DNA of 64,000 nt from a virus: IMG/VR virus record IMGVR_UViG_3300040816_000831. One strand, given 5' to 3'. Position numbers and translations under genes: made by a program. This document shows, one piece after another, positions 43,292-58,114 of this stretch. Numbering within the stretch: the first letter of the stretch is position 1; the number at the start of each line of letters is the position of its first letter. A model generated the notes under the pieces. The model saw nothing but the letters and a program-made list of their open reading frames with translations. It was not told the origin of the DNA and searched no databases.

Positions 43292-43607
43292 TTCCTATTC
43301 CTATTGTTGCTTGATTAGTTTCTTTAGCGTATTCTAAAGAATCTGTTATTATATATTGTAGTACTGAACCTAAGTAATTTTTAAACGATTCGTCTTTCTC
43401 AAGTTCATCTACACTAAAATCTGCTGGGTCTTGTACTGTAAAGTTAAAGCTTAATGTTGCTATATCTAAGTTAGGGTCTTCTTTGACTCCAACTTGTCCA
43501 TATACAACTATAACATTCTTCCAAGTACCAGTTTTAAGTTTTACTCCTTGAAACGCACTATTGTCGTTTTCTACAATTGAGTAGTCTTTTTCGCTTATGT
43601 TGTACAT
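43245..43607 (-). CDS. Hypothetical protein at the gp40 position
   Basis: Between uvsX and 41. Confidence 0.6.
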   Translation of the reverse strand: MYNISEKDYSIVENDNSAFQGVKLKTGTWKNVIVVYGQVGVKEDPNLDIATLSFNFTVQDPADFSVDELEKDESFKNYLGSVLQYIITDSLEYAKETNQATIGIGNDESVTNTHTESSST

Positions 43608-44659
43608 TATTCTTCAGTATCAATATCAAGGTCAATATCAATCATTGGTCTATGACCGACTGAATAATATGTTTTTACAAACTCTTTAAAGTTAGTATTT
43701 TCCAAGATTGGTTCCCAGAACTTTTTCTTAAGAGTATCTTTTTCTCTTACTTTTGGTTCTAGTATTTCTCCAGTTTCCATATCAACTGCGGCATACCAAC
43801 CAACATTTGGTTTAGTTACGTATCCACCAGCCATTGCAACATCGAGCAATCCACTATACTGTTCTATACCACCTTCCCACGTTACTGAGATTGGTACCTT
43901 TGATTTTTCTTTTACAAATCTAGATTTTTCTACATTGATTACAAAATGATACCCTTGTATTTCTGTACCTTTTTTATCTTGACGTCTTCCAATAATCCAT
44001 ATATTGTCTGATGAGTAATAGATACCTGTACCACCTGAAACAACTGCTTTAGGAAACAATCCAATTTCTTGATAAGTATGATTAACAGCAAGTAAAGGGA
44101 TATTCTTCATGGTTAGATAAGGAGTAATCATTCTGAATAATCCCTTTAATGCTTTAGCTCTTGACATGTCAGCGACTGACTTTTCATTGAGAGCATCTTC
44201 CAACTCTTTCTTAGAGGCTAAGTTTCCAATTGAATCAATAACAACAACAACTTTATCTCCTCTTTCGATATTTTCGAGTTGACCTACTAAATCGAACTTA
44301 AGTTGTTCGACATTTTGTACTGGAGTATGTAATACTTTTTCAGTATCAATACCAAATGATTCGAAATAAGATTGAGGTGACCCAAACTCTGAATCATAAA
44401 ATAACATTACTGCATCTTCATGCTGCTTTAAATAAGCTGCTCCCATAAGTAGAGCAAATGAAGTTTTGAAATGCTTTGAAGGACCGGCAAGAACTGTAAG
44501 TCCTGATGTAAGTCCTCCGTCAATATCACCTGATAATGCAACATTTACCATTGGCACCTCAGTGACAGTTATATCTTTTTCAGCAAATAAAACTGAATCA
44601 GATAGAATAGAAGTATCTTTGATTTTACTATTCTTTTTTAATTTATCCATTATAGACAT
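43607..44659 (-). CDS. uvsX: RecA-like recombinase UvsX
   Basis: AGPSKHFKT, FYDSEFG, IDSIGNLAS, SGGTG. Confidence 0.96.
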   Translation of the reverse strand: MSIMDKLKKNSKIKDTSILSDSVLFAEKDITVTEVPMVNVALSGDIDGGLTSGLTVLAGPSKHFKTSFALLMGAAYLKQHEDAVMLFYDSEFGSPQSYFESFGIDTEKVLHTPVQNVEQLKFDLVGQLENIERGDKVVVVIDSIGNLASKKELEDALNEKSVADMSRAKALKGLFRMITPYLTMKNIPLLAVNHTYQEIGLFPKAVVSGGTGIYYSSDNIWIIGRRQDKKGTEIQGYHFVINVEKSRFVKEKSKVPISVTWEGGIEQYSGLLDVAMAGGYVTKPNVGWYAAVDMETGEILEPKVREKDTLKKKFWEPILENTNFKEFVKTYYSVGHRPMIDIDLDIDTEE

Positions 44660-44660
44660 A

Positions 44661-44927
44661 TTATCTTCTCCTGGCTTTTGACGGCCTATTAAATGCATCT
44701 AGCATTCTTTGTTGTTTACGACTTCTAGAAACTGCTTCAGCTTTTTTTCTTTTCTTTTTAGCTGTAGGTTTTTCATAGAATTCTCTTTTGCGTACCTCTT
44801 GTACAATACCTGCGTTTTCACAGGCTTTTTTAAATCTTCTTAGACCAACATCAAAAGGCATTTCTTTTGATGGTCTTTTGTCTCTAGGATTTTTATTCTT
44901 CCTTGGACGTAAATCTATACTTGGCAT
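44661..44927 (-). CDS. rpsU: Ribosomal protein bS21
   Basis: [31 protein letters not shown]. Confidence 0.92.
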
Positions 44928-44956: not shown

Positions 44957-44985
44957 ATTATAACATAAAATCAGTGAGTTGTAAA
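44957..44985 (-). promoter_or_regulatory. Sigma70-like phage promoter
   Basis: TTTACA-N17-TATAAT upstream of rpsU. Confidence 0.7.
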
Positions 44986-46145
44986 CTGTTTTTTTCATAT
45001 TCATAGGTTCTTTTTTTATTATCCTGTATTAGGAATTTAGTATCAATCATTTCAAGCTGATTGTTTAAATATTTTTGAACCATTTTTGCAGCATGCTCTG
45101 CTGTAGTCACTGGCACATTTTGGCATATATGGTTAAGTGACCTTTTAGGTTCAAGCAATATAAAATCTTTTGGTAGTTTCATAAGAGATAAAGCTTCTCT
45201 TACTGTTAAGTATCTATCTTCATCCGGATGAGTTAAGCACGTTGGCATATGTCCAACAAATGCTCCTATTTTATCTTTAGGAATCTCTGTAGTTTTTCTC
45301 ATGATATTACCACCAGCTTTGAGCTTATGATATTGCCTATCGCATTTCTTTGCAACATTATCATATCCATTTTCTCTCATCCATTTAGCTACTTCTTTAT
45401 ATGTTGTTCTTTCTTCAATGTAGTCCATTGGGTTTGTTGTCTTTTCTATTTTATCTTGAAATTCACTATGTGATATACCACCTTCTAATACTTCAAGAAC
45501 ATATCGATAATATGGTTCTTCAGAAGGTTTCTTTTCATTACAAAGAATTTGACTCATTGGGTCATCATCTTTTCTTTCAACTTCTCTTATATCATCAGCA
45601 ATCATTGTAGGTCTTTCTAGTACATATTCAAATAATGGTACTTCATTACCTTTCCAAAAGAAATAGAATGTTCTATCTCGTACTTGGCTGAGTCCATGTA
45701 GTATAGATTTTGTTTTAAAGATACTAAAAGTATATCCATTATCTTCTCCTATCTTCCTCAATCTTCTTACAACGGGTTCTCCCATCTTACTTGCAAGCCT
45801 TGGTGCGTTCTCTCCCCAAAATACTTTTGGTTGTACTTCACTAAGTACATATTCAGCAGATGTAAACATCCATTCGTTCATAGGATTATTACTTGCAGCT
45901 GATGGACTAAGTGAGCTGAGCCCTGCACATGGGCATACAGTATTAATCACATTAACTTTTTCTGTGTAACTCGCTCCCTCTGAGAGGTTCAAATATGGGA
46001 CCTCATGGTTATAATGATTTAATAAGTGAGATTCATTAGCTTGAAAGCCTTCATATGTCATAATATACTTTGGTCTTTCTCCAAAGACATTTTCCATTGC
46101 TATTGTTTCTCCACCTATTAGTGGTACTATACTCGCATAACTCAT
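44958..46145 (-). CDS. Divergent DNA cytosine-C5 methyltransferase-fold protein
   Basis: Motif IV PCAGLS, VI EN, VIII Q.R.R, IX R.LTVRE; motif I is PLIGG instead of FxGxGG, motif X is CQNV. Confidence 0.75.
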   Translation of the reverse strand: MSYASIVPLIGGETIAMENVFGERPKYIMTYEGFQANESHLLNHYNHEVPYLNLSEGASYTEKVNVINTVCPCAGLSSLSPSAASNNPMNEWMFTSAEYVLSEVQPKVFWGENAPRLASKMGEPVVRRLRKIGEDNGYTFSIFKTKSILHGLSQVRDRTFYFFWKGNEVPLFEYVLERPTMIADDIREVERKDDDPMSQILCNEKKPSEEPYYRYVLEVLEGGISHSEFQDKIEKTTNPMDYIEERTTYKEVAKWMRENGYDNVAKKCDRQYHKLKAGGNIMRKTTEIPKDKIGAFVGHMPTCLTHPDEDRYLTVREALSLMKLPKDFILLEPKRSLNHICQNVPVTTAEHAAKMVQKYLNNQLEMIDTKFLIQDNKKRTYEYEKNSLQLTDFML

Positions 46146-47122
46146 GCAAAAAACTCCTCTAGTCCAGCCTTTTCAATTCCATTCCAATATGGATAGAACT
46201 CTCTGGATAAATGTATTGATTGTGGTTTCTCCATATATTTAAAATCGAGCTTACCTTCTTTATTAAAGAGATGACCGGTCCATCTTTTGATACCGTATTC
46301 TTTCTCTATGTAATCGTTAAATTTATTTCTTGCATCATTTCTTTCTGACCAAGAACCGTAAAATGGTTGTCCTTTATAATATCCTGATTGCGGTATTCTT
46401 CTACTTACATCTTCTATTGGAAGCAACTCATATATCTTTGCATTATACTTATGAGCTTCTTCAATATACCTATCAGCTAAATCTTCTATCTTTTGTCCTA
46501 GTCTAATTACATGATGTCTTATATCAATATTACCAAAATAGCATTCAAGCTCTTCATAATCGTAAGGAATGTATTTATCAAATCCTTCGTTTAAAGCTCC
46601 ATTTAAAGTTTTGAATGGAACACTGTTTACTGTCCAACCTGGTCGATACATGCAGATGGAATGACTATCACCAATAACTATTTTAGAAGTTGGATTAGGA
46701 TAGTCGATTCTTTCAGCTTCATTAAACATGCGTTCTAGATTTTTAAGGTCTACATCATGCCATTCCGGTTGAACCTCTTTCTTAGCCGATTCCAGTTTTG
46801 ATTTAACCATTTCGTGATACGGCGGGAAGTCGATTCCAATTGAAAAGACTCTGCCTTTGAACTTAGAAAAGTTGACAGTGTTCTTAACATAAGGAAAACC
46901 GTATACGCCACCAAACATATTAATTCCACCACTCCAATCAGTGCCGTGATAGACCCAAAGACTATCATAATCATTGTGGTCTTCAATTTCTCCACCGTAG
47001 TTAACATCGCAGTTTCCATATTTCTCCTTTATCATATCGCCATACATTACTCCTGCAGCTCCTCTATGAGAAGCAGCTCTCTTAGCTATTGGAATAAATG
47101 GACAATTAATTATATTTTTCAT
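46142..47122 (-). CDS. SGNH-like hydrolase/acyltransferase
   Basis: IGDSH, FGNID, C-terminal SIHLS. Confidence 0.5.
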   Translation of the reverse strand: MKNIINCPFIPIAKRAASHRGAAGVMYGDMIKEKYGNCDVNYGGEIEDHNDYDSLWVYHGTDWSGGINMFGGVYGFPYVKNTVNFSKFKGRVFSIGIDFPPYHEMVKSKLESAKKEVQPEWHDVDLKNLERMFNEAERIDYPNPTSKIVIGDSHSICMYRPGWTVNSVPFKTLNGALNEGFDKYIPYDYEELECYFGNIDIRHHVIRLGQKIEDLADRYIEEAHKYNAKIYELLPIEDVSRRIPQSGYYKGQPFYGSWSERNDARNKFNDYIEKEYGIKRWTGHLFNKEGKLDFKYMEKPQSIHLSREFYPYWNGIEKAGLEEFFA

Positions 47123-47129
47123 TAGATAT

Positions 47130-47158
47130 ATTATACCATACTTTTGTTCAAATGTAAA
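47130..47158 (-). promoter_or_regulatory. Sigma70-like phage promoter
   Basis: TTTACA-N17-TATAAT. Confidence 0.75.
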
Positions 47159-47163
47159 CGTTT

Positions 47164-48228
47164 TTATTCAAAGAATTCACTAAGGGTATTAGTCTTTTGT
47201 ACGCGCGCCACGCGTCTACGCGCGCATGCTCGCTCGTCTTCTCTTATCTGTAGGTATACACCAAACTGACATGACAACACTTCAGTTCCGTAGTATTTAA
47301 GAGAATCTTGTTCATATTGAAATAATTTACTACCGTCTTTCTTATTTATATTGAAAGCTTTTGGATGAAATACAACATCTTTTGTTAATCCTATTTCATC
47401 TGAATTTTCTCTCATATAGTATATTGCTTCGTCATACAATTTCTTTGGAGCTTCTGGCCACATTAATTGTATTGTATACACAGCTCCTGGACCCGGCGAT
47501 ACAAATCTTTGGTCATGATGATACTTCATTTGTGGTAATACAGATGAAGAAGCAGCTCCATGGAATCCGTAATAATGTCCTATGCCAGGTTGTTCTCTTA
47601 AAAGAGTATAAATCTCTGACATATGATTACATTGTTGCATTCGTTCTAAGAAACCAGTATCTCTAAAAGAAGATACCCATTCACAAACATCAACTGCATG
47701 AAACTTTCTATCTGGTTCGTTATACTTTTCACGACAATAGTTTCTAGCAGCAGTTTGTATAGATGTGTGTAATTCTGTTGTTCCCCAAATTGGTTGCTTA
47801 TTCTTTATTGCTTTATCTAAATTATTACGAACATATTGAATATAATCTTTATTTCCATTTGCTATTCTATCAAAATCAACAAAGACGTTATCTTCTCCTG
47901 AAGCAAGAAAATGAACTCCTCTTCCACCATAGAAATGAGATATAAAAGTATTACCTACAATATTCATTATTGTAGTATCTAGACTTGCTATCTCTTGACC
48001 AATAAATCTCATACGGTCATCAAGTGTAATTGTTGGATGAAAATATTCTACATCTTCGCCAAGACCAAAATCATTCTTGCCATGACGATTTACTGATTCA
48101 TATTGTTCTTTTGAATATCCAAGTTGTATATTAGACCTTTCATTAACTTTATATAGAAACCAATTGAACTCTTTCATGAGTTCTTTATCGTAATTCGACC
48201 AATCGTAATTATATTTAGTACTTGACAC
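47164..48228 (-). CDS. aGPT-Pplase/amino acid:DNA transferase-like helical (HhH glycosylase-related) DNA modification protein
   Basis: F....ER, DDR, L...PGIG.Y, FV.PGPGA, E...CQF..Y motif series. Confidence 0.6.
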   Translation of the reverse strand: MSSTKYNYDWSNYDKELMKEFNWFLYKVNERSNIQLGYSKEQYESVNRHGKNDFGLGEDVEYFHPTITLDDRMRFIGQEIASLDTTIMNIVGNTFISHFYGGRGVHFLASGEDNVFVDFDRIANGNKDYIQYVRNNLDKAIKNKQPIWGTTELHTSIQTAARNYCREKYNEPDRKFHAVDVCEWVSSFRDTGFLERMQQCNHMSEIYTLLREQPGIGHYYGFHGAASSSVLPQMKYHHDQRFVSPGPGAVYTIQLMWPEAPKKLYDEAIYYMRENSDEIGLTKDVVFHPKAFNINKKDGSKLFQYEQDSLKYYGTEVLSCQFGVYLQIREDERACARRRVARVQKTNTLSEFFE

Positions 48229-48628
48229 GTTCCTCGTTATCTCTCTTTAAATGAACAATTGATATATCAGGACATCTTTTTTTAATCTCTTTGATTTGAA
48301 TTGGGTCATCTTCGAAATGCATTTCTATTTCTACTCCCAAGTCTTTTAACATATTAATCATTTGTCCTTTAAAGATACCAGAAGCTTTTCTGCCATATAG
48401 TGGATTTTCTTTTACTCCATGAGTCACTTTATGATTTTTTAGTTTTCTTTCAAGTGGATTCATGTAAAGAGTATTATATATTCCTCTAGATTCTAGCATT
48501 TTTACTGTAGCTTCTCTATCAGCAAAAGGCCGCCCAGTAATGATGATGTCATCTTTACCGGGTCTTACGCCTGTGGTGCTTTCACCAAAATAGATTACTC
48601 CATCGATGTCAAACGAATTAATTTTCAT
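48215..48628 (-). CDS. HAD phosphatase
   Basis: FDIDGV, ITGR, K, FEDD; coupled to inositol-phosphate synthase. Confidence 0.8.
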   Translation of the reverse strand: MKINSFDIDGVIYFGESTTGVRPGKDDIIITGRPFADREATVKMLESRGIYNTLYMNPLERKLKNHKVTHGVKENPLYGRKASGIFKGQMINMLKDLGVEIEMHFEDDPIQIKEIKKRCPDISIVHLKRDNEERVKY

Positions 48629-49910
48629 AATCATTCTTCGCATCTTGGAAGGTGTGAGGCAAATCTGCTGCCTTCGGTCTATTCTCTTTGAGCTGTGGAG
48701 TAGTAATATCTGTCAATACTCTCCTAGCTAAAGCATCACATTCAAATTTGGCATCTTGAGTTTTGAGCTGTAATGGAGGAGTCTTTTGAGTCCATGCTGA
48801 TGGTCCTCTTAAATATCCTACAATGCCCATCTCTGAAGCTACCTTACAAAATCTAATTGCTGAAACAACAACTCCACCAGAGTTTGGAGAGTCTTGAACT
48901 GAAAGTCTAGCTGACATTTCATATCTTGCTCCTGCAAATCCATAAGCAACCATATCAAAGTTAGCTATTTTATTATCAGATGAGATATAATCTCCACCTG
49001 GTTTTTGTTGAACAGTAAGAGATGGACCAGCAAATAATGTCATACCTGCAGTTGATTCTCCTCTTACGCTGTTTTGTCCTTTTAAAACATTTTCTTTTGA
49101 TACATGTTTGTTATGTAATCTATATTGTTTTGCCATATTCAAGAAGTCAGTATTTGCTGTTCTTCCTGTTCTTATATGCTCTTGTCCTTGTGTAGAACCA
49201 GCAGCCATATTCATTTGAATGTGTTGTGTTACCATTAAACCTGAATCTAACATAGCACCTTGTAGAACTTCTGACATTCTTGAAGCTCCCCAGGCTGACC
49301 TCATATCTGAACCAACAATTGTAAGTCCTGCATCTATGAATCTTTGTTCAGTTATCATAGCATCTTCTGTTGAAATCAATGTCGGTATACAGTTTACGAA
49401 ATGTATTCCTGCATCTAACGCAACATCAATCCAGTATTTAGAAGCTTCTTCTGAACCAACTGGTAAATAGTTAATGAGTACATCTACATCATGATACTGT
49501 AGTAACTCAACAGTTCTTTCAAAAGATTCTGCTGGTACAGCTCCATTTACAAATGTGACTTCATCTGGATAATCATGCATGTGAGGAGCTATTCCGTCCA
49601 TTTCTGGAGCTGAATAGACCATTGCATCATTATTTACAGCTGAACTATTTGATGTAGTTGTTATTTTTTCGACATGGTCCATAGCGCAATTAGGTTGAGC
49701 TCTTAAAGCTTTTGCTAATTTTTTATTTACTTTCCTTTTATCGATATCAAATCCAATAACAAACTCGATGTCGTGTACTGAATATCCGCCGATATCTTCA
49801 TACATTAGACCAATTTTGTCTTCTGGATTTTCGTTATAATATTGTACACCTTCCACTAAAGACTTTGCACAACTTCCGACGCCGATTATTCCGGCTTTTA
49901 TTTTTGACAT
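48618..49910 (-). CDS. ino1: myo-Inositol-1-phosphate synthase
   Basis: GVGSCA..LV.GV.YY, INYLPVGSEEA, FVNCIP, NTDFLNM, GPS, L.V.DSPNSGG. Confidence 0.92.
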   Translation of the reverse strand: MSKIKAGIIGVGSCAKSLVEGVQYYNENPEDKIGLMYEDIGGYSVHDIEFVIGFDIDKRKVNKKLAKALRAQPNCAMDHVEKITTTSNSSAVNNDAMVYSAPEMDGIAPHMHDYPDEVTFVNGAVPAESFERTVELLQYHDVDVLINYLPVGSEEASKYWIDVALDAGIHFVNCIPTLISTEDAMITEQRFIDAGLTIVGSDMRSAWGASRMSEVLQGAMLDSGLMVTQHIQMNMAAGSTQGQEHIRTGRTANTDFLNMAKQYRLHNKHVSKENVLKGQNSVRGESTAGMTLFAGPSLTVQQKPGGDYISSDNKIANFDMVAYGFAGARYEMSARLSVQDSPNSGGVVVSAIRFCKVASEMGIVGYLRGPSAWTQKTPPLQLKTQDAKFECDALARRVLTDITTPQLKENRPKAADLPHTFQDAKNDYEN

Positions 49911-49937
49911 ATTATTCTCCTTATATCAGTTTATTTG

Positions 49938-49974
49938 AGTGAGAAATTTGACTGGCGTACCAGAGTAGCTCACT
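49938..49974 (-). promoter_or_regulatory. Hairpin in leader of ino1
   Basis: AGUGAG/CUCACU outer stem, CUGG-UACG-CCAG inner stem. Confidence 0.45.
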
Positions 49975-50278
49975 ATATACTATTAGTTATAACACTTATC
50001 AGACCACTTCCAAGGATAATGACTGCTGCTGTGTTTAAAATTATCAATGCTCTATCTTTCCAGATAAGAGCTACTATTAACCAACCGAATGTTCCAACTA
50101 AGGAAAACGCTTGGTCATAGAGAGCAAGGTCAGGATTAGACCTGCTTGCCATAGCAATTAAAAGAATAGCTGATGCTACCCATTTAATATACCAATCAAT
50201 TGTATACTTAGGAGTTGCGCTCTTAAATATACGCTTTGAATTTTTTATTTCTTGTTCGTTAAATTTCGGTGAATTCAT
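49973..50278 (-). CDS. Small three-TM membrane protein
   Basis: WYIKW...GW..V...W.DRALI.LN. Confidence 0.7.
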   Translation of the reverse strand: MNSPKFNEQEIKNSKRIFKSATPKYTIDWYIKWVASAILLIAMASRSNPDLALYDQAFSLVGTFGWLIVALIWKDRALIILNTAAVIILGSGLISVITNSI

Positions 50279-50699
50279 ATTTTACATTAGCCTCTTTAAA
50301 TATTTCATGTGTTTTTTCTATTGCTTCTTTCCATCTATCTGGAGTATTTTCTGAAAGCGATACAACTCTAGATATTCCTGCTTGTATTATACCTAATGAG
50401 CAATGACCACAAACTGGTAAACCATAAATATATAATATAGAATCTTTTAAAGATATTCCATTTTCTGCAGCATTATATATACAATTCATTTCTGCATGAA
50501 CTACATATTGATACTTTGTTTCTCTATGATTATATCTTTCTTTACTATCTTCAATACCTTTAGGAAATCCATTATATCCTGTTGCTAATATTTTTCTATC
50601 TCTTACAGCAATTGCACCTATTTTTCTACTTGGGTCTTTACTCCATGTAGATATTTCACGAGCAATATCAAGAAATCTTTTATCCCACTTATTTAACAA
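50259..50699 (-). CDS. cd: dCMP deaminase (start approximate)
   Basis: SKDPS, TGYNGFP, HAEMN, P.C..C. Confidence 0.9.
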   Translation of the reverse strand: MLNKWDKRFLDIAREISTWSKDPSRKIGAIAVRDRKILATGYNGFPKGIEDSKERYNHRETKYQYVVHAEMNCIYNAAENGISLKDSILYIYGLPVCGHCSLGIIQAGISRVVSLSENTPDRWKEAIEKTHEIFKEANVKYEFTEI

Positions 50700-51366
50700 G
50701 GTCAAAGTGCCTCTCATACACATGTAAGTTTTGTACTTGCCAATAAATTTTACCACCACTTTTAAGTGGATGACCATTATAGTATAAATCTTTTTCTAGT
50801 TTTTCTAATACGTATTTTTGCCAAGCGTAATCATTTCGATAACCATATACAACGTCATTACTTCTCATTTGAACTACACAATGTAATTGTTCATCTCTTA
50901 TATAATATGTAACAGCATTTGTACAAATAAAATCATTCTTACCATCTTCTTTAAATTCGCGCCAGATACTTGGTCTTTGATATACCATTGAAGCTCTACG
51001 AGAATCTGGATTAATTTCACTTAGTTCTTTTACTACTTGATTATATTGTCTATGAAATTTTTTACTGAATATAAGATGACCATAATTAGAATTGATTTCA
51101 CCATAATCATTTGCAGAATATTCCCATGCTGCTGGCGACTTACCATATATTTCAGCAAGTTTATTAATATTAGTTGACCTAGAATTATACCATTCTATTT
51201 CAGCATCAATATATTCTTGATTGGGTTTACCAAAAATTGATGGCTTATCTGCTAGAAAAGACGCAGCAAATATTTCGATTGTTTTACAACCAGTCTTATC
51301 ATCGGTAAACTCTTTGTTTTTAAGTTTATCGATAAACGTATTTGCGATATCTTTAGTCTTCAACAT
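50689..51366 (-). CDS. 42: dCMP hydroxymethylase (thymidylate synthase fold, T4 gp42 type)
   Basis: INSNYG, SRR, RPS, DFICTN, MRSNDVVYGYRNDYAW (Asp at the dCMP-specificity position), LHVYERHF. Confidence 0.88.
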   Translation of the reverse strand: MLKTKDIANTFIDKLKNKEFTDDKTGCKTIEIFAASFLADKPSIFGKPNQEYIDAEIEWYNSRSTNINKLAEIYGKSPAAWEYSANDYGEINSNYGHLIFSKKFHRQYNQVVKELSEINPDSRRASMVYQRPSIWREFKEDGKNDFICTNAVTYYIRDEQLHCVVQMRSNDVVYGYRNDYAWQKYVLEKLEKDLYYNGHPLKSGGKIYWQVQNLHVYERHFDLVK

Positions 51367-51682
51367 TACTTACCTTTTTGTTGAACATATCTCTTGTTGG
51401 GTCTTGGCCTTCCATTTTACCTCGAGCATAAGCAACAGCAAAAGAACAATAGTTAATCATATCTTTATAAGTATCTTCAATACTTTCGAAGTTTGGGTCA
51501 TCGGCTGATTCAAGCAATGAAGTTGCTCTCATCATTTTACCAAGAATAATATCATGAATCGTATCAATGCCACGTCTATAATGCATGGCTTGGACTACTG
51601 TTGATTCAGAACTTTGATAGTCTTGGGATTTTTTAGTTTGTAGTTCTGCGCATTCTTGCAGGACTCTTAAGCTTTCTTTCAT
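51353..51682 (-). CDS. Nucleotide-modification-associated helical protein (Nmad1/DUF1599-like)
   Basis: KK..DY, K..R, ESIEDT..D.INY. Confidence 0.7.
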   Translation of the reverse strand: MKESLRVLQECAELQTKKSQDYQSSESTVVQAMHYRRGIDTIHDIILGKMMRATSLLESADDPNFESIEDTYKDMINYCSFAVAYARGKMEGQDPTRDMFNKKVSNVED

Positions 51683-51711
51683 AATGTCTCCATAATTAAT
51701 TAGATATATCT

Positions 51712-51740
51712 ATTATATCATACTTTTGGTTAAATGTAAA
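51712..51740 (-). promoter_or_regulatory. Sigma70-like phage promoter heading the modification operon
   Basis: TTTACA-N17-TATAAT. Confidence 0.75.
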
Positions 51741-51747
51741 CTGTTTT

Positions 51748-52170
51748 TTAATATATTTTACTACTTGTAAATTTTCGTAGTTCATCACCTTTACCTTTAA
51801 AGGTTGTTATCATTTTCATTTTACTTATTGGCCAACCACACATTACTCTTCCATCGCGTGTAGTTATTTCTTTTGTATCATTTCTATCAATACACTCCCA
51901 TAATATTGCATCAGGGGAGTTATCATATTCAACAAAGAAAAGACGGTCTACTGATTTACATTTTGGTACTTGATTTTTCCAAGCTGTATTTACAGTAAAG
52001 TAACCAAAGGGATGTCTATTTTGGCATTTAACTTCTGCTGTTTCATCAAGTATCATACCATCTTTTTTGCTATCATATTTGTCAGTACTTTGTTCACCAC
52101 TAAAGTAATCAAAAACTAATTGTTCGGCTAAAAAGCCCATCTTTTCTTTATTTGTTTTATATGTATTCAT
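51748..52170 (-). CDS. Putative PD-(D/E)xK nuclease
   Basis: G..AE...D...EVK. Confidence 0.5.
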   Translation of the reverse strand: MNTYKTNKEKMGFLAEQLVFDYFSGEQSTDKYDSKKDGMILDETAEVKCQNRHPFGYFTVNTAWKNQVPKCKSVDRLFFVEYDNSPDAILWECIDRNDTKEITTRDGRVMCGWPISKMKMITTFKGKGDELRKFTSSKIY

Positions 52171-52601
52171 TATCTACTAAGAGATTTATTGTATATAATA
52201 CCTTCTGATATTAATACTTCTCTATTCCACATGTGTCCTTTTTCAGTGTCATCTTTTGACTGACCAAAATAAGGAACTGCATGACAATCTTTTATCATTT
52301 GTTGATTAACACTAAAATTAGAATTACCTATAAAAAGTTCACCAAGTATTCTGCCAAACTTTCCTTTATCATGAGATTGTAATTGAACCTCTTGGTCTTT
52401 TAGTATTTTCTTTAAGTGAGCTTTTGAAGCTAAGCCATAAAACTTTTCTTCTAAATCTCTAGTTCTAGATTCTGGAGTATCAATACCCATCATTCTAACT
52501 CTTTGTTTTTTGTAGACCATTCCAAATCCTAAATCGATATCTACATCAACTGTATCTCCATCTACGACTCTTGTGACCTTTACGTTATATCTATAGCTCA
52601 T
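52170..52601 (-). CDS. Thermonuclease (SNase-like)
   Basis: RVVDGDT, R..GIDTPE, GKFGRIL. Confidence 0.9.
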   Translation of the reverse strand: MSYRYNVKVTRVVDGDTVDVDIDLGFGMVYKKQRVRMMGIDTPESRTRDLEEKFYGLASKAHLKKILKDQEVQLQSHDKGKFGRILGELFIGNSNFSVNQQMIKDCHAVPYFGQSKDDTEKGHMWNREVLISEGIIYNKSLSR

Positions 52602-52864
52602 TAGTCTTCTCCTATTACTGCTTTAATGTGGTCAGCGTCTATAATAACAGCTGCGTTACCATCAACATTTACTGCCATTGACTTTGACCAATCTAAAAAG
52701 ACTCTTTGTCCTGTCATGACTTTATCTAAAGCTCCAGTACTAACTGCTAAAACTAATCCTGGTTTACTTGCGTTGTCAATATTTTCAGTAAGTATAATAC
52801 CACCGGCCGATTGACTTTCTTTTTGTACTTCTGTTACGAGTACGTTGTTTCCTAACATTTTCAT
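52601..52864 (-). CDS. groES: Co-chaperonin GroES
   Basis: VLV...SAGGIIL, G.VLAV..G, I.AVI. Confidence 0.8.
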   Translation of the reverse strand: MKMLGNNVLVTEVQKESQSAGGIILTENIDNASKPGLVLAVSTGALDKVMTGQRVFLDWSKSMAVNVDGNAAVIIDADHIKAVIGED

Positions 52865-52874
52865 AATATCTCTC

Positions 52875-53387
52875 CTATTTGTAGAATATGTGGTTATTTA
52901 TTATAACAGTTTGATTGAGCGAATCTGCCCAATAAGGAAGGACTCTATCATTGTGATAATGTGTTGACCCCTCTGTAATATCCGGATATGCTCCTTGTAT
53001 GACATCTCTTGCTATGTGTAATGATTTAAGCCATGTTGGACTATCTTCTGGGTCGTCTGATTTGCCATCACAAAACCAACTAAATTGGCATTGATTACGC
53101 ATAGGAATCATTTCGCCTAACCAGTTTTCTTTCCACTTAGCTTGGTAAATAACTCCACAAACATCCGTTGGATAATTTGGATGTTTTGTTCTATTTAGAA
53201 CAACATGAGCAACAGCTACTTTTCCAGCTAATGGTTGATTACCAGCTTCAAAGTAAATGTTTTGAGCCATACAATAAATATCATTGTTGGCGTCTGAAGC
53301 TTCAACCTTTGGAACAGCAAACATTACTGCACCTAGCATGAAACCAAATAACATTCCATATAGAAATGCTTTATATTCATCTGTCAT
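52875..53387 (-). CDS. Cell wall hydrolase (SleB/Hydrolase_2)
   Basis: C.A.NIYFEA, VVLNR, CQFSW.CDG, T.YH, HIFY; N-terminal TM. Confidence 0.9.
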   Translation of the reverse strand: MTDEYKAFLYGMLFGFMLGAVMFAVPKVEASDANNDIYCMAQNIYFEAGNQPLAGKVAVAHVVLNRTKHPNYPTDVCGVIYQAKWKENWLGEMIPMRNQCQFSWFCDGKSDDPEDSPTWLKSLHIARDVIQGAYPDITEGSTHYHNDRVLPYWADSLNQTVIINNHIFYK

Positions 53388-54301
53388 ATATTATTTTTAA
53401 ACACGAATTCAATAGCTCGTGCTGCCTCCTTTTCTAAATCTCTTTTATTATACCACCCACCAGTATCAGTATCTAAATCTCTACAGATATATTCGATTTC
53501 TTTTGGTGTAATTGGATAACCTTTACTATGAGCATTACCAGCAGTTGTTAACATGATTTGATACATTTTTGCATACCAACCAGTTCCACTGATACCTTTA
53601 TATTCGTCAACTTGTTTTTTATTAACAAAAGGACAATCACGATATGATGTCCACGTATAATTTGTATTGTTCAATTCATTTCTTTTTCTTTCAAGTAACG
53701 CTTTTTGTATTGCTTCTGGAAAACGATCGAACATTGTTTGATTAGGTTTAACGTATGGATATTGTTCCATAAGTTTATGTGGGTTCATAATATCTCCATC
53801 GTGAGAAAATATGAAATTAAAACTGTTTTTGTATTTAGCAGGAACATAATACATTCTGCTTAAGTCTTTGGTTTGAGCATCAGCAATATCGCCAATCTCT
53901 TTGTTTAAAGCATACCAAAAATGCTTAATGTCTTCTTTATCAACGAATTCTGTTAATGGAAAGACGAGTCTAAACTTTGGTGATTCAACTGTAGATGATG
54001 CTGTTGAATAACATACATAACGATACTTATCATACTTTGATTCAATATCTTTCATATCGCCTTCATAATCATCAATATCAAGAATACCAAAGCCGGCCCA
54101 ACCAACAACATTATCATTTGCACGAGTAGTACTAGTTTGATATATTGCTGGACTTAAAAGCGGAGCATCTTTCTTTGTAGGATATTTAGTCGACTCAGAA
54201 AGCTTATAGAGAATAGCCTCGAACTCGTCGAAACTATTATAATCCATACGCTTATCTGTTTTGTTATCGTATATATTATCGAATATTGTGCAACTTACCA
54301 T
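53384..54301 (-). CDS. Archaeo-eukaryotic primase (prim-pol)-like protein
   Basis: LDID, YST.S...PKFRLVFPL, D.SR.YY.P, helical C-terminus. Confidence 0.65.
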   Translation of the reverse strand: MVSCTIFDNIYDNKTDKRMDYNSFDEFEAILYKLSESTKYPTKKDAPLLSPAIYQTSTTRANDNVVGWAGFGILDIDDYEGDMKDIESKYDKYRYVCYSTASSTVESPKFRLVFPLTEFVDKEDIKHFWYALNKEIGDIADAQTKDLSRMYYVPAKYKNSFNFIFSHDGDIMNPHKLMEQYPYVKPNQTMFDRFPEAIQKALLERKRNELNNTNYTWTSYRDCPFVNKKQVDEYKGISGTGWYAKMYQIMLTTAGNAHSKGYPITPKEIEYICRDLDTDTGGWYNKRDLEKEAARAIEFVFKNNI

Positions 54302-54689
54302 GATTTCCTTCGTGACTTGGTCCTTCCCAACCTTCTGGTTTGATTAGGTCTGGTAATCCTAGTGGATTAGGTCTTTCAGGTTTTACTCCTACTGTTTTAT
54401 TTAAGTTTGCTTTTAGAACTTCATCCCAAGCTTTATATGGGTCAATACCAAATGCATCAAGTGTTCCAATAGCAACAACACATATATCGATTAAACCATC
54501 GACAATTTCTTCTGCATCGTTATTGGTTAATGCTGCTTCAGTTTCCATAAGTTCTTCTCTTATAAATTTGATTCTAAATCCAAGATAAGCACGTAGCTTT
54601 TCAGCGTTGTCTTTATTATCATGAATCCATTTATGAACTCCATACTTATACTGCATGTCTTGAATATCTTTTATCCAGTTTTGGCTCAT
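54276..54689 (-). CDS. MazG-like all-alpha dNTP pyrophosphatase (candidate dCTPase)
   Basis: EE..E, E.VD.LID, V..AN..K, KP.GW..P. Confidence 0.8.
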   Translation of the reverse strand: MSQNWIKDIQDMQYKYGVHKWIHDNKDNAEKLRAYLGFRIKFIREELMETEAALTNNDAEEIVDGLIDICVVAIGTLDAFGIDPYKAWDEVLKANLNKTVGVKPERPNPLGLPDLIKPEGWEGPSHEGNHGKLHNIR

Positions 54690-55013: not shown

Positions 55014-55586
55014 TTAATCCCAATTAATTGCAGGTATTTGTCCATAAAATCCTTGAGTTGCTTTTAATTGAGTAGGAAAATATTTAGAAAGCTTCTCAAT
55101 ATCTCCATGATCGTAATTTAATTTAGGCAATCTTGCCTCTTTCTTTTGAACTATAACAGATACATCATATCCATAAGTTCTCACAGCTGCATCTGAACAG
55201 TCAAATCCAGCTAATATAAGATTATATAATAATAATCCTGCATTCCATAATGAAACATGTCCACCAACAATATTGTGTCTAAGTGGTGGAACAGATATTG
55301 CAAGAATTCCATTTGTATCTATAAGATGAAATATCTTACTTAAAAAATGATGTACATTCAATTGATGTTCAAGTGTATGTGCACACCAAACACAATCAAA
55401 ATTTCTATCAAAGTCGATTGTATTAAAATCACCTTGATAATCTGATTCGAGTATATCTGTTGTATAAACTTTTTTACCTCTTTCTTTAAACATATTAGAA
55501 AACTTTCCATCACCTGCGCCAACATCAAGTACTGAATTAAATTGAAAATCTGTTACTAACTTTTCAAAGGTGAGTAAACTTCTCAT
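55014..55586 (-). CDS. Class I SAM-dependent methyltransferase
   Basis: VLDVGAGDG, FD.VW..HTLEH, G.LAI.VP. Confidence 0.85.
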   Translation of the reverse strand: MRSLLTFEKLVTDFQFNSVLDVGAGDGKFSNMFKERGKKVYTTDILESDYQGDFNTIDFDRNFDCVWCAHTLEHQLNVHHFLSKIFHLIDTNGILAISVPPLRHNIVGGHVSLWNAGLLLYNLILAGFDCSDAAVRTYGYDVSVIVQKKEARLPKLNYDHGDIEKLSKYFPTQLKATQGFYGQIPAINWD

Positions 55587-58114
55587 CCGAAAAAATCCTC
55601 CAGGCTTGCAACTTCTTTCGAAGTCCAACCTACTGCTTCCAAGACCGGTTCAATAGGATCGAGGAATGTTTTTTGAAACTGTGTTTCATGGTCGATGTAT
55701 TTTCTTAAGCCAAACTCATCTGGAAGATAAGATGGGAAAGCAATTACATTTTCATGAATTGAATTTGGTTGACGAAGATATATGAACTTAATCTTTTCGC
55801 CATTGTTTATAAGTTCGTATTTCTTTTTAAGCTGATTGTCTTCAATTAGTTTATTGTAAAGAATAGCTCCACGAACATGTATAGGCGTTCCTTTTTTATA
55901 GAGGGTATTTCTATCTTGGAACTTTTTAACTTGAGTCACTCCGCGCGGAAATGCAATCTGGTCAGGTTCAAGAGTTTTGAAATAGTTCTTAAACTGTTCG
56001 ATAGCTTGTTGAACTGTATTTTCATCTTCTTTCATTATGACTTTGAATATATTTTTAAGAGCATCACGACATGGTTCAGGTGTAGAAGACTTAATTGCTT
56101 CAATACCCATAATCTTAAGCTTTGGCTCGGCATATCTCACGCCTTCGTTATCATGTACATTCATAATATATCTTTTCTTTGCAGTCCAAAGCGCACGGTC
56201 AGCGATTGCTTCACGTTTCATAACCATACGATTATCTACTCCACCAAGATACTTATACAATTGCTCATAAGACTTTTCAAGCTCTGGTTCAAGCGCTTCA
56301 CTAGCAACTTTATCTAGAAAGTCGATTGTATTTTCAGGTTTGAATTTTTGTACAAAGTCGTTTAAGCATACATACAGCGAGTCTGTGTCGATAGCAATAA
56401 CATAGTCTTTCCATTTTTCAGGTTTGAGCACTCTATTGAGATAGGTGTTAAGCGAATATTCGGCCCATCGAATTGTAAGTTGTCCGGTGAGGGTAATTGC
56501 TTCTGCGATTCTCTGGTCAAAGAATCGAAAATAGCGATTGCCAAGAGCGCCATACAAACTGTTAAGAAGAATCTTAATAGCCATTTGTCTGTTTTCGGCA
56601 ATTGCAATATCTCTTTCAATTTGATATAATTTTTGTTTGTCATTTTTATCTACCTTTTCTTTTTCTTTTTGAGCGTTAATCATTTCTTGTTTAATACCAA
56701 CACGCTCTTTATACATCTCATCGATAATGAATGGTATTATACCTGGCTTATCTACATTAAAATATTGTCCATTAGCTGCAAGAGCTTTACCTTTATTAGG
56801 AGCGATACGATGTTCGCTTATAGCACTATCAATATCGAATTGAGCAATCTCTCCATTAGCAATCGTTTCAGGCGACATATTGTATTGCATAATGATTGAT
56901 GGATAGAGAGAGTTTAAGTCAAAAGAAACAACGTTATCATGTATTCCTACTTGTGGGTCTTTAACAAAGCCACCTGGATAGTTAGACTTTACTTTATCTT
57001 CAACGAAAGGTATAGCAATATTGTTTGCAAATAATCTGCGATAGATAATCGTATCCCATATCATTGTAGTACCGAATGTATCGTTATAGTTAACGCCAGC
57101 TTTATATGCCATTGTCATACAAAGAGTAATCAATCCAAGCTTATCTTCGATTTTGTCGACAAGCTCAACGTCTTTGATATTATAGTCAATAAACTTTTGG
57201 TGATTATGCTTGTAAAGAGTATGAAGATTCGAATACTCATCATAAGATAGTTTCTTTTCTCCTAACACGACATGAGCAATGTTATCAAGTTTATAAGATT
57301 CTTGTGGTCCATAAGAATAACCAAACTTCTTAAATAGGTCGAGGTAATCAAGTTGAGATATACCTTTAAGTTCATAAGCAGTTTGAGTCCTTCCCATCTT
57401 AGTTACGTCTTGTCTATCAATCATTCCCCAAGGACTGAGTCTTTTTACGTAAGCTTCTCCAAGCATACGATTGATTCTATTCACAAGGTATGGAATATCA
57501 AAGAACCTTGAATTCCAGCCAGTCACGACATCAGGACAATATTGTTGAGATGACCAATGAGTAATAAAATTAATAAGCAAGTCATCTTCACGGTCAAACT
57601 TACGATATACTACCATGTGGTCTTTCATATAAGATTTGTCAGTATCATAATCACCTAAGCCCCAGACATAATAAGTATTGCCAATATTGTTTTTCATACA
57701 AATGGCTGTAATCTTATGGTCGGCTTTTTCAGGCTCAGGGAATCCATCGTCAGAAGCAACTTCAATATCAATTGTTGATACGTTGATTTTGTTTCGATCG
57801 AATTCGATATTACCAGGATAGTAATCATTAATGAATGCTGGAACGTACTTTGTGTTTCCATATATCTTTTTACCAGATACGCCTTTATTAGCTTGAACAT
57901 ACTCGTTAGCAGTTCTCATGGATTCGAACCTTTTGCCAGCATTTGCTACACCTACAGGATTTCCATCAAGCGATTTCCACTTGGTAGGAAGATTGGTAGA
58001 TGTAAAAAGGATTGGTTCGTATTTGACTTTCTTTTCAATTCGTCTTCCGTGGTCATATCCTCGTAAGAGAATCATATTACCATATCGAGACACATTAGTA
58101 TAGAATTTCATCAT
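55583..58114 (-). CDS. 43: DNA polymerase B gp43
   Basis: DIEV, YN..DV, DLNSLYPSII, K...NS.YG, DTDS, KKRY. Confidence 0.97.
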   Translation of the reverse strand: MMKFYTNVSRYGNMILLRGYDHGRRIEKKVKYEPILFTSTNLPTKWKSLDGNPVGVANAGKRFESMRTANEYVQANKGVSGKKIYGNTKYVPAFINDYYPGNIEFDRNKINVSTIDIEVASDDGFPEPEKADHKITAICMKNNIGNTYYVWGLGDYDTDKSYMKDHMVVYRKFDREDDLLINFITHWSSQQYCPDVVTGWNSRFFDIPYLVNRINRMLGEAYVKRLSPWGMIDRQDVTKMGRTQTAYELKGISQLDYLDLFKKFGYSYGPQESYKLDNIAHVVLGEKKLSYDEYSNLHTLYKHNHQKFIDYNIKDVELVDKIEDKLGLITLCMTMAYKAGVNYNDTFGTTMIWDTIIYRRLFANNIAIPFVEDKVKSNYPGGFVKDPQVGIHDNVVSFDLNSLYPSIIMQYNMSPETIANGEIAQFDIDSAISEHRIAPNKGKALAANGQYFNVDKPGIIPFIIDEMYKERVGIKQEMINAQKEKEKVDKNDKQKLYQIERDIAIAENRQMAIKILLNSLYGALGNRYFRFFDQRIAEAITLTGQLTIRWAEYSLNTYLNRVLKPEKWKDYVIAIDTDSLYVCLNDFVQKFKPENTIDFLDKVASEALEPELEKSYEQLYKYLGGVDNRMVMKREAIADRALWTAKKRYIMNVHDNEGVRYAEPKLKIMGIEAIKSSTPEPCRDALKNIFKVIMKEDENTVQQAIEQFKNYFKTLEPDQIAFPRGVTQVKKFQDRNTLYKKGTPIHVRGAILYNKLIEDNQLKKKYELINNGEKIKFIYLRQPNSIHENVIAFPSYLPDEFGLRKYIDHETQFQKTFLDPIEPVLEAVGWTSKEVASLEDFFG

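Follow-up and report, generated by a model that had tools for sequence, protein, structure and literature searches.

A candidate pathway for attaching a phage-made cyclitol to cytosine in the DNA of a marine T4-like phage

Introduction

What might a T4-like phage attach to 5-hydroxymethylcytosine (hmC) in its DNA when the genes between gp43 and uvsX encode a dCMP hydroxymethylase and a cyclitol-phosphate synthase, and no GT-B glucosyltransferase? This question is raised by a stretch of 64,000 nucleotides from the IMG/VR virus record IMGVR_UViG_3300040816_000831 (hereafter the window, meaning the whole stretch that was analysed). The window derives from an uncultured, marine T4-like myophage, the gp43 of which shares 52% identity with the Phage C48C1 protein and about 47% with gp43 of cyanomyophages. 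Nine open reading frames (ORFs), here called A to I, lie between gp43 and uvsX, all on the minus strand. We somewhat favour the view that this block is a two-stage cytosine hypermodification system, in which a cyclitol made by the phage is attached to hmC in DNA. An original prediction, made from the sequence without database searches, had proposed inositol on modified cytosine; gene identities, gene linkage and a division of the proteins by their C-terminal tails agree with this outline, while several details differ, namely the family of G, the absence of a kinase and a looser tie of the inositol genes to gp42. The block and its boundaries are as follows.

55583-58114, minus strand: gp43 DNA polymerase, with the C-terminal tail SLEDFFG, the reference clamp-binding-type peptide
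51353-51682, minus strand: A, Nmad1/DUF1599 protein (PF07659, E 1.5e-7, above cut-off; phrog_1485)
50689-51366, minus strand: B, gp42 dCMP hydroxymethylase (PDB 1b49, E 1.1e-67 over residues 15-224)
50259-50777, minus strand: C, dCMP deaminase (PF00383, 3e-19; phrog_174, 7e-46; HAE and PCxxC motifs)
49973-50278, minus strand: D, small membrane protein DUF6552 (PF20189, 1.5e-17; three hydrophobic segments)
48618-49910, minus strand: E, Ino1-family cyclitol-phosphate synthase (full-length match to Mycobacterium tuberculosis Ino1, 1gr0)
48215-48643, minus strand: F, capless HAD phosphatase of 142 residues (motifs I-IV: DxDGV, TGR, K92, DD112-113)
47164-48228, minus strand: G, stand-alone HMUDK_hel protein with a helix-hairpin-helix (HhH)-glycosylase-like fold (HMUDK_hel, PF18723, 1.2e-11)
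46142-47122, minus strand: H, two-domain protein with a C-terminal SGNH domain (fold residues 139-314; invariant GDSH)
44958-46145, minus strand: I, C5-cytosine methylase-like protein (PF00145, 1.6e-15; 57.9 bits against a cut-off of 22)
43607-44698, minus strand: uvsX, the other boundary of the block

All nine genes of the original prediction are present at their coordinates and on the minus strand. T4 has the order 43-imm-42-b-gt-segA-uvsX-40-41 in the same interval, and the earlier claim that the block occupies the T4 slot of gene 42 and beta-glucosyltransferase is therefore correct.

Results

The base entering DNA

B retains the catalytic Cys148 (FICTN) and Asp179 (RNDYAW), both aligned with T4 gp42. 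Asp179 replaces the Asn of thymidylate synthase, and the D179N mutant structure (PDB 6l18) reads RNNYAW at this place. B is a true orthologue of T4 gp42, and Asp179 is its cytosine-selecting residue. The real start of C is probably downstream of its first ATG. D occupies the position of imm in T4, is missing from several related clusters and is probably not a member of the pathway. One further gene may belong to this stage and lies on the other side of an intervening group of genes:

54276-54689, minus strand: MazG/PRA-PH-type nucleoside triphosphate (NTP) pyrophosphatase, candidate dCTPase and gp56 analogue (PF01503, 7.8e-11)

In the related phage L087 (handles beginning with L denote contigs) a MazG-type gene lies directly between Nmad1 and gp42, so the dCTPase role fits. 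The phage very probably replicates with hydroxymethyl-dCTP. The earlier naming of A as Nmad1-like, B as a gp42-type dCMP hydroxymethylase, C as a dCMP deaminase, D as a membrane protein and the gene at 54276 as a MazG-type pyrophosphatase was confirmed throughout.

The cyclitol supply genes

E aligns with 1gr0 over its full length (5.7e-49 for the single sequence, 2.2e-88 for the family profile) and belongs to a phage-specific Ino1 clade, phrog_33138. The NAD-binding motifs GVGSCA and YLPVGSE are conserved in its family, and SKxxSK, DxK, DSPNS and the terminal lysine are invariant in 15 phage homologues. K268, K272, D312, K314, D340 and K376 are invariant and aligned with 1gr0; by comparison with the archaeal enzyme, we take these Lys and Asp positions to be catalytic.

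E nevertheless departs from a plain Ino1. It scores 193.5 bits against the NCBIfam equivalog TIGR03450, whose cut-off is 638, its GDDxK motif (GDDIK) is altered to GSDMR, and a 15-residue insertion also counts against simple membership of Ino1. Its second-closest solved relative (5e-25 for the single sequence, 5e-45 for the profile) is Ari2 (6k96), which makes a five-membered cyclitol. We therefore name E a cyclitol-phosphate synthase with inositol phosphate as the most likely product, a broader name than the earlier label of myo-inositol-1-phosphate synthase. These departures would also suit an enzyme that is not an inositol-phosphate synthase and whose product is some other sugar phosphate or cyclitol, perhaps a five-membered ring as with Ari2. 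We think this very unlikely, as E matches the true Ino1 1gr0 much better and along its full length, and as every residue aligned with conserved Ino1 positions, apart from GDDxK, is invariant. All phage Ino1 homologues also end in a conserved acidic xDYEx tail (in E at 48618-48650) that M. tuberculosis Ino1 does not have.

F retains all four HAD motifs, in keeping with the HAD phosphatase of the original prediction, and D12, D14, T36, K92, D112 and D113 show no variation among 8 homologues, which come from 8 loci. Searches of PDB sequences with F, G and H gave no match. F would probably act on free inositol phosphate. It could alternatively act later, if the cyclitol were transferred as inositol phosphate, whether as nucleophile or by forming a phosphodiester, and the HAD enzyme then dephosphorylated the adduct on the DNA. 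Capless HADs often accept large substrates, and the sole library match of F, a weak one, is the PHROG 'polynucleotide kinase' family phrog_415 (E 5.6e-7). Relatives of the Ralstonia phage RP13 moreover have phosphate-containing thymidine hypermodifications (PMC12686479). F itself, however, has no clamp-type tail of the kind found on G, H and I (described below), with only a few distant homologues ending in QLSLF, and the substrate assigned to a similar small HAD in the arabinose pathway of RB69 and DLP3 is a sugar phosphate in free form (PMC13326640). We consider dephosphorylation on the DNA improbable and prefer the free cyclitol as the product of F.

The DNA-directed proteins

G matches HMUDK_hel with 45 bits (gathering cut-off 25) and aligns end to end with ORF120 of RP13, another stand-alone HMUDK_hel protein (hhalign E 1e-5), with which it has Glu-x3-Cys in common; Glu316 and Cys320 are invariant in the G family. 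Its structural model has a predicted local distance difference test (pLDDT) value of 90.7. The closest fold is 8z2n, the 5-PmdU glycinyltransferase gp46 of phage PaMx11 (Z 10.4, root-mean-square deviation (rmsd) 4.4 over 226 residues), followed by HhH DNA glycosylases. PaMx11 gp46 flips the base out, and its Cys247 attacks C6 (PMC11472151); counted along the sequence, C320 of G and that cysteine are at similar distances from where the alignment ends. The Pfam family of G is HMUDK_hel and not PF18724, which differs from its earlier description as an aGPT-Pplase/AADT-like protein; in fold it may be AADT-like. G has no P-loop kinase domain, and the window contains no homologue of HMUD2 or of a P-loop kinase: tblastn with RP13 HMUD2, the RP13 P-loop protein ORF124, the AADT of Caulobacter phage Cr30, a TAGT-like protein and the glycosyltransferase-like protein of L091 found no match there. 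In PaMx11 the HMUDK_hel protein gp50 adjoins a P-loop kinase, and the two are fused in other phages.

The C-terminal domain of H has an SGNH fold (model pLDDT 87.5; Z 12-13, rmsd 2.7-3.0 over about 150 residues). In block I, G151, D152, S153 and H154 are invariant and GDS is placed at a strand-helix junction; blocks III (GxND) and V (DxxH) deviate, with GNID at 197-200 for the former and E298 and H304 for the latter, each of them invariant. The fold and block I agree with the SGNH-like assignment of the original prediction. A match from a Tenacibaculum phage is limited to the SGNH half, in an uninformative gene context. The N-terminal domain weakly resembles that of T4 beta-glucosyltransferase: H 28-96 aligns with b-gt 27-98 (hhalign E 2e-4, probability 46%), PF09198 matches at E 0.087, and Foldseek gives a probability of 0.6-0.8 with TM 0.29. 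As b-gt is not among the best 50 structural matches of H, we treat this likeness only as a lead; a protein atlas search with the N-terminal domain gave none. The C-terminal, UDP-glucose-binding Rossmann domain of b-gt has no counterpart in H, the C-terminal half of which is the SGNH domain. The earlier statement that the block has no recognisable glucosyltransferase is correct in that no GT-B enzyme is present, with the N-terminal domain of H as a caveat.

In I, CPCAG (PC, motif IV), GENAP (motif VI, ENV in the standard form) and Q154/R156/R158 (QxRxR, motif VIII) are invariant in 11 homologues. Motif I (FxGxGG), which binds S-adenosylmethionine (AdoMet), reads PLIGG family-wide, and motif X is QNVP. 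Only motifs I and X deviate and the catalytic motifs are intact, so that 'degenerate', as the protein had been called, is overstated.

Clamp-type C-terminal tails

G, H and I are set apart from the other proteins of the block by their last residues. Of 170 ORFs of at least 60 residues in the window, the pattern L..[FL][FLMY] occurs at the end only in gp43, G (TLSEFFE), H (GLEEFFA), I (LQLTDFML) and two very short ORFs on the plus strand. The gp43 tail, which ends SLDFLFG in T4, docks on the gp45 sliding clamp. The tails of G, H and I are kept within each family even where homologues elsewhere are 27-40% identical, and gp42, the deaminase, Ino1 and uvsX have none. By this sequence feature, the block would divide into small-molecule enzymes and enzymes working on DNA, which fits the pathway model.

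Linkage across viral contigs

The original prediction had suggested co-occurrence of ino1, HAD, AADT-like and gp42 genes across phages as a check, and we found strong linkage that recurs in independent lineages. The genes are common in viral metagenomes from the sea, Ino1 alone having 192 matches in IMG/VR. Among 80 viral contigs with an Ino1 of 75-100% identity, all 39 with at least 5 kb downstream had F, G and H, 36 of them had I, and gp42 was upstream of Ino1 in 34/40. Most of the 80 contigs are syntenic relatives and not independent, and the rearranged ones therefore weigh more: L083 has the order gp42-H-E-F-G and L072 has H-E-F-G, and in the L055/L087 phage the Ino1 module is 12 kb from Nmad1-MazG-gp42.

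Five divergent G homologues (38-45% identity, on T4-like contigs) all have Ino1 within 6 kb, with HAD and H a few kb away. These clusters differ in gene order and have unrelated surroundings (L089/L090, L091, L105, L106, L107); in L089/L090 the Ino1-HAD-G-H set is inserted between the head and tail genes gp23 and gp13 of a 359-kb contig. In the L107 cluster, an enzyme of the thymidylate synthase family has Asp as its specificity residue, and two I-like methylases, paralogues of each other, and an RlaP nucleotidyltransferase are encoded as well. The distant clusters also contain methyltransferases, either FkbM-type (Methyltransf_21) or class I (L105:8923-9630, L107:13621-14607, L089:8680-9444), and an APS kinase and a sulfotransferase-like gene are directly upstream of Ino1 in the distant T4-like contig L106 (1083-2357), which may indicate a sulfated variant of the adduct. 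Decoration of a polyol fits this picture, since the tailoring genes differ between clusters.

Other genes were also noted around these clusters. CHASE2-adenylate/guanylate cyclase, curlin-repeat, FecR and CsgG genes separate the gp42 module from the Ino1 module of the 55-kb contig L055 (737-8951). Genes for anti-CBASS Acb1 proteins are a few kb from the Ino1 clusters of three unrelated phages (L001:5974-6564, L091:7107-7598, L105:4327-4854). In one marine lineage, a 339-residue protein is encoded upstream of H (L072:7891-8910) that is 37% identical to the product of a Cr30 gene (L094:2415-3431), which adjoins the thymidylate synthase of that phage.

Cultured phages

In the phage collection, Ino1-like genes were present in three lineages, each with a HAD gene nearby and each inside DNA-modification genes. 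In Cr30, the PF18724 AADT gp123 (1.3e-52) and a weak match to a TET-associated glycosyltransferase are immediately upstream of Ino1 and HAD. In RP13, the neighbours of the pair are ORF118 (AADT-like), ORF120 (HMUDK_hel, 3e-47) and ORF133 (HMUD2, 5-hmdU kinase 2); the specificity residue of its thymidylate-synthase-like enzyme is Asn, which makes the enzyme one of uracil type. RP13 DNA is reported to be so heavily modified that sequencing suffered (PMC12686479). In Stenotrophomonas phage Moby, the pair is placed between FolE and QueC/DpdA/QueE of a deazaguanine cluster, with no G, H or AADT gene. The link between ino1 and gp42 drawn earlier is not exclusive, as Ino1 and HAD also accompany hmU-type, AADT and deazaguanine systems.

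The reverse case, H without Ino1, occurs in Aeromonas phages. In 44RR and 31, H and G are fused into one protein of 795 residues, encoded beside a sodium:solute symporter (SSF), and in phage 25 H adjoins a gene for UDP-galactopyranose mutase. All three phages have genes 42 and 56 and no glucosyltransferase (PMC2993671). In phage 25 the mutase gene and one for a 358-residue protein are immediately upstream of the H homologue (L093:2776-4957), which hints at a galactofuranose-type modification of hmC; the 358-residue protein was considered as a relative of G and set aside, having no detectable similarity.

H beside such other sugar-related genes, and Moby with its pair alone, would be expected if G, H and I modified hmC with another group (acyl, amino acid or host-derived sugar) and Ino1 and HAD were auxiliary, making inositol for another use, such as an osmolyte or lipid head group, and co-travelling in a variable region; the interval between gp43 and uvsX is indeed a known plastic region of T4-like genomes. 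Against this, Ino1 and HAD stand beside base-modifying genes in at least four unrelated lineages, cultured or uncultured, and at several genomic positions, head and tail genes included, for which chance or shared plasticity is an unlikely cause. We regard an auxiliary role of the pair as unlikely and return to the cyclitol as the group that would be attached.

Discussion

The proposed pathway

From the assignments of the genes, the folds, tails and conserved residues of their products, and the linkage described above, we infer a pathway in two stages, the order of which is itself part of the proposal. In the nucleotide pool, the MazG-type pyrophosphatase and gp42 would yield 5-hydroxymethyl-dCMP, which would be phosphorylated and built into DNA by gp43, with the dCMP deaminase supplying dTMP synthesis. 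In the supply arm of the second stage, E would form inositol phosphate by cyclising a hexose phosphate, most probably glucose-6-phosphate, and F would strip the phosphate. In the DNA arm, G, H and I would be tethered to the sliding clamp by their polymerase-like tails. G would be the base-flipping HMUDK_hel protein with its Glu/Cys pair, and I a C5-methylase-derived enzyme with an intact catalytic cysteine. H might prepare the 5-CH2OH group, perhaps by O-acylation, in place of a P-loop kinase; the helical protein has such a kinase as partner in PaMx11 and H as partner here, which is why we assign H this part. Thiolate attack on C6 by G (Cys320) and/or I (Cys73) would then give an exocyclic methylene to which a hydroxyl of the cyclitol adds, and the predicted product is an ether-linked 5-(inosityl-oxymethyl)cytosine, possibly acylated further. 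A free polyol nucleophile fits better than an activated sugar because of the dephosphorylation step and the absence of a nucleotidyltransferase or GT-B enzyme, and in phage ViI the serine:DNA transferase already shows the use of an O-nucleophile (PMC8989533).

Several points weigh against this proposal, beyond the departures of E from Ino1, the close kinship of most contigs in the linkage set and the solitary pair in Moby. PF18724 (aGPT-Pplase2/AADT) did not match G even at E 10, and profile comparison of the G family with PaMx11 gp46 and with Cr30 gp123 by hhalign was not significant. Neither a kinase nor another proven activator of hmC was found in the window, and SGNH enzymes are, as a rule, acyltransferases or esterases and do not activate leaving groups. 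That a cyclitol is attached to DNA is, moreover, predicted here from the genes.

As a speculative extension, which may well prove wrong, several unrelated phage lineages could make cyclitol-ether bases: inosityl-oxymethyl-cytosine here and a uracil counterpart in phages of the RP13 and Cr30 type, with lineage-specific O-acyl, O-methyl or sulfate tailoring. The hmC version would be made at the fork by clamp-tethered enzymes and with SGNH activation instead of a kinase.

Comparison with known systems

The nearest parallels are the thymidine hypermodifications of phages M6, ViI, PaMx11 and PhiW-14, which employ a 5-hydroxymethyldeoxyuridine (5-hmdU) DNA kinase and AADT (PMC8989533, PMC11472151). 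As proposed here, these phages make a hydroxymethyl-pyrimidine as a nucleotide and decorate it once the DNA has been replicated, and supply and tailoring genes cluster with transferases. These systems also have an HhH-glycosylase-like helical protein, as this block has in G, and a conserved Cys with a nearby Glu, to which Cys320 and Glu316 of G may correspond. In contrast, the base in our case would be cytosine, as judged by Asp179 of gp42, and not uracil; SGNH-domain and C5-methylase-like proteins are present in the window instead of a P-loop kinase or PF18724 transferase; and a cyclitol made by the phage is predicted as the nucleophile, where those systems use an amino acid or polyamine.

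T4, with glucosyl-hmC, and RB69 and DLP3, with arabinosyl-hmC (PMC2993671, PMC13326640), have the gp42-based hmC precursor and the slot between gene 43 and uvsX in common with the block, and the arabinose pathway likewise includes phage-borne sugar-supply genes with a small HAD phosphatase. Unlike these phages, ours has no GT-B glycosyltransferase, nucleotidyltransferase or anomeric kinase here. A cyclitol has no anomeric carbon, hence a glycosidic link is impossible and an ether or phosphodiester would be expected. With M. tuberculosis Ino1 (1gr0), E has full-length homology, the NAD motifs and the Lys/Asp positions in common, and it differs in GSDMR for GDDIK, the inserted 15 residues and the C-terminal extension ending in xDYEx.

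In its logic the pathway follows known hydroxymethyl-pyrimidine hypermodification; its novelty lies in the predicted adduct and in H, G and I as a set acting on hmC. Our searches of a paper library found no description of inositol or a cyclitol on DNA, in agreement with the remark in the original prediction that no described inositol-modified DNA base is known.

Surroundings of the block

Three early-type promoter-like sites and further genes flank or interrupt the block.

51740-51712, minus strand: early sigma-70-type promoter-like site upstream of A, in an intergenic gap (11/12 matches and an extended -10 TG)
47158-47130, minus strand: second early promoter-like site, upstream of H (11/12 matches and an extended -10)
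44985-44957, minus strand: third promoter-like site, strong and early-type, belonging to the S21 gene (11/12 matches and an extended -10)
44661-44927, minus strand: ribosomal protein S21 homologue (PF01165, 2.8e-17)

The promoters predicted earlier at 51712 and 47130 were both recovered; the number of promoter-like sites across the region is not above chance. The S21 homologue is kept directly ahead of uvsX in most related contigs. Between gp43 and the block, a staphylococcal-nuclease homologue, a Cpn10/GroES homologue and a cell-wall hydrolase are encoded in a run (52170-53387, minus strand). A class I AdoMet-dependent methyltransferase (Methyltransf_23, 3.5e-13; 55014-55628, minus strand), which only some relatives have, overlaps the 3' end of gp43. 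A conserved ORF of 305 residues (53384-54301, minus strand) adjoins the MazG gene and belongs to no Pfam family; it was considered as a hidden kinase or glycosyltransferase and rejected, as its language-model neighbours and a weak Pfam match indicate a primase-type domain.

Implications

If the proposal is true, it would add a new class, the cyclitol-bearing bases, to the natural DNA modifications and place ether-linked polyols beside glycosyl, amino-acid and polyamine adducts. Parts of the system may also serve as tools for labelling 5hmC, in particular the SGNH partner of a base-flipping domain and the methylase-like protein, whose AdoMet site is altered. Isobaric with glucosyl-hmC, the product would yet differ from it chemically, because it is not a glycoside, and this would matter for restriction enzymes, for the recognition of glycosylated hmC by enzymes and for sequencing chemistry. 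Such a base would also account for the protection of hmC in gp42-positive phages that have no glucosyltransferase, a question left by earlier work on T4-like genomes (PMC2993671).

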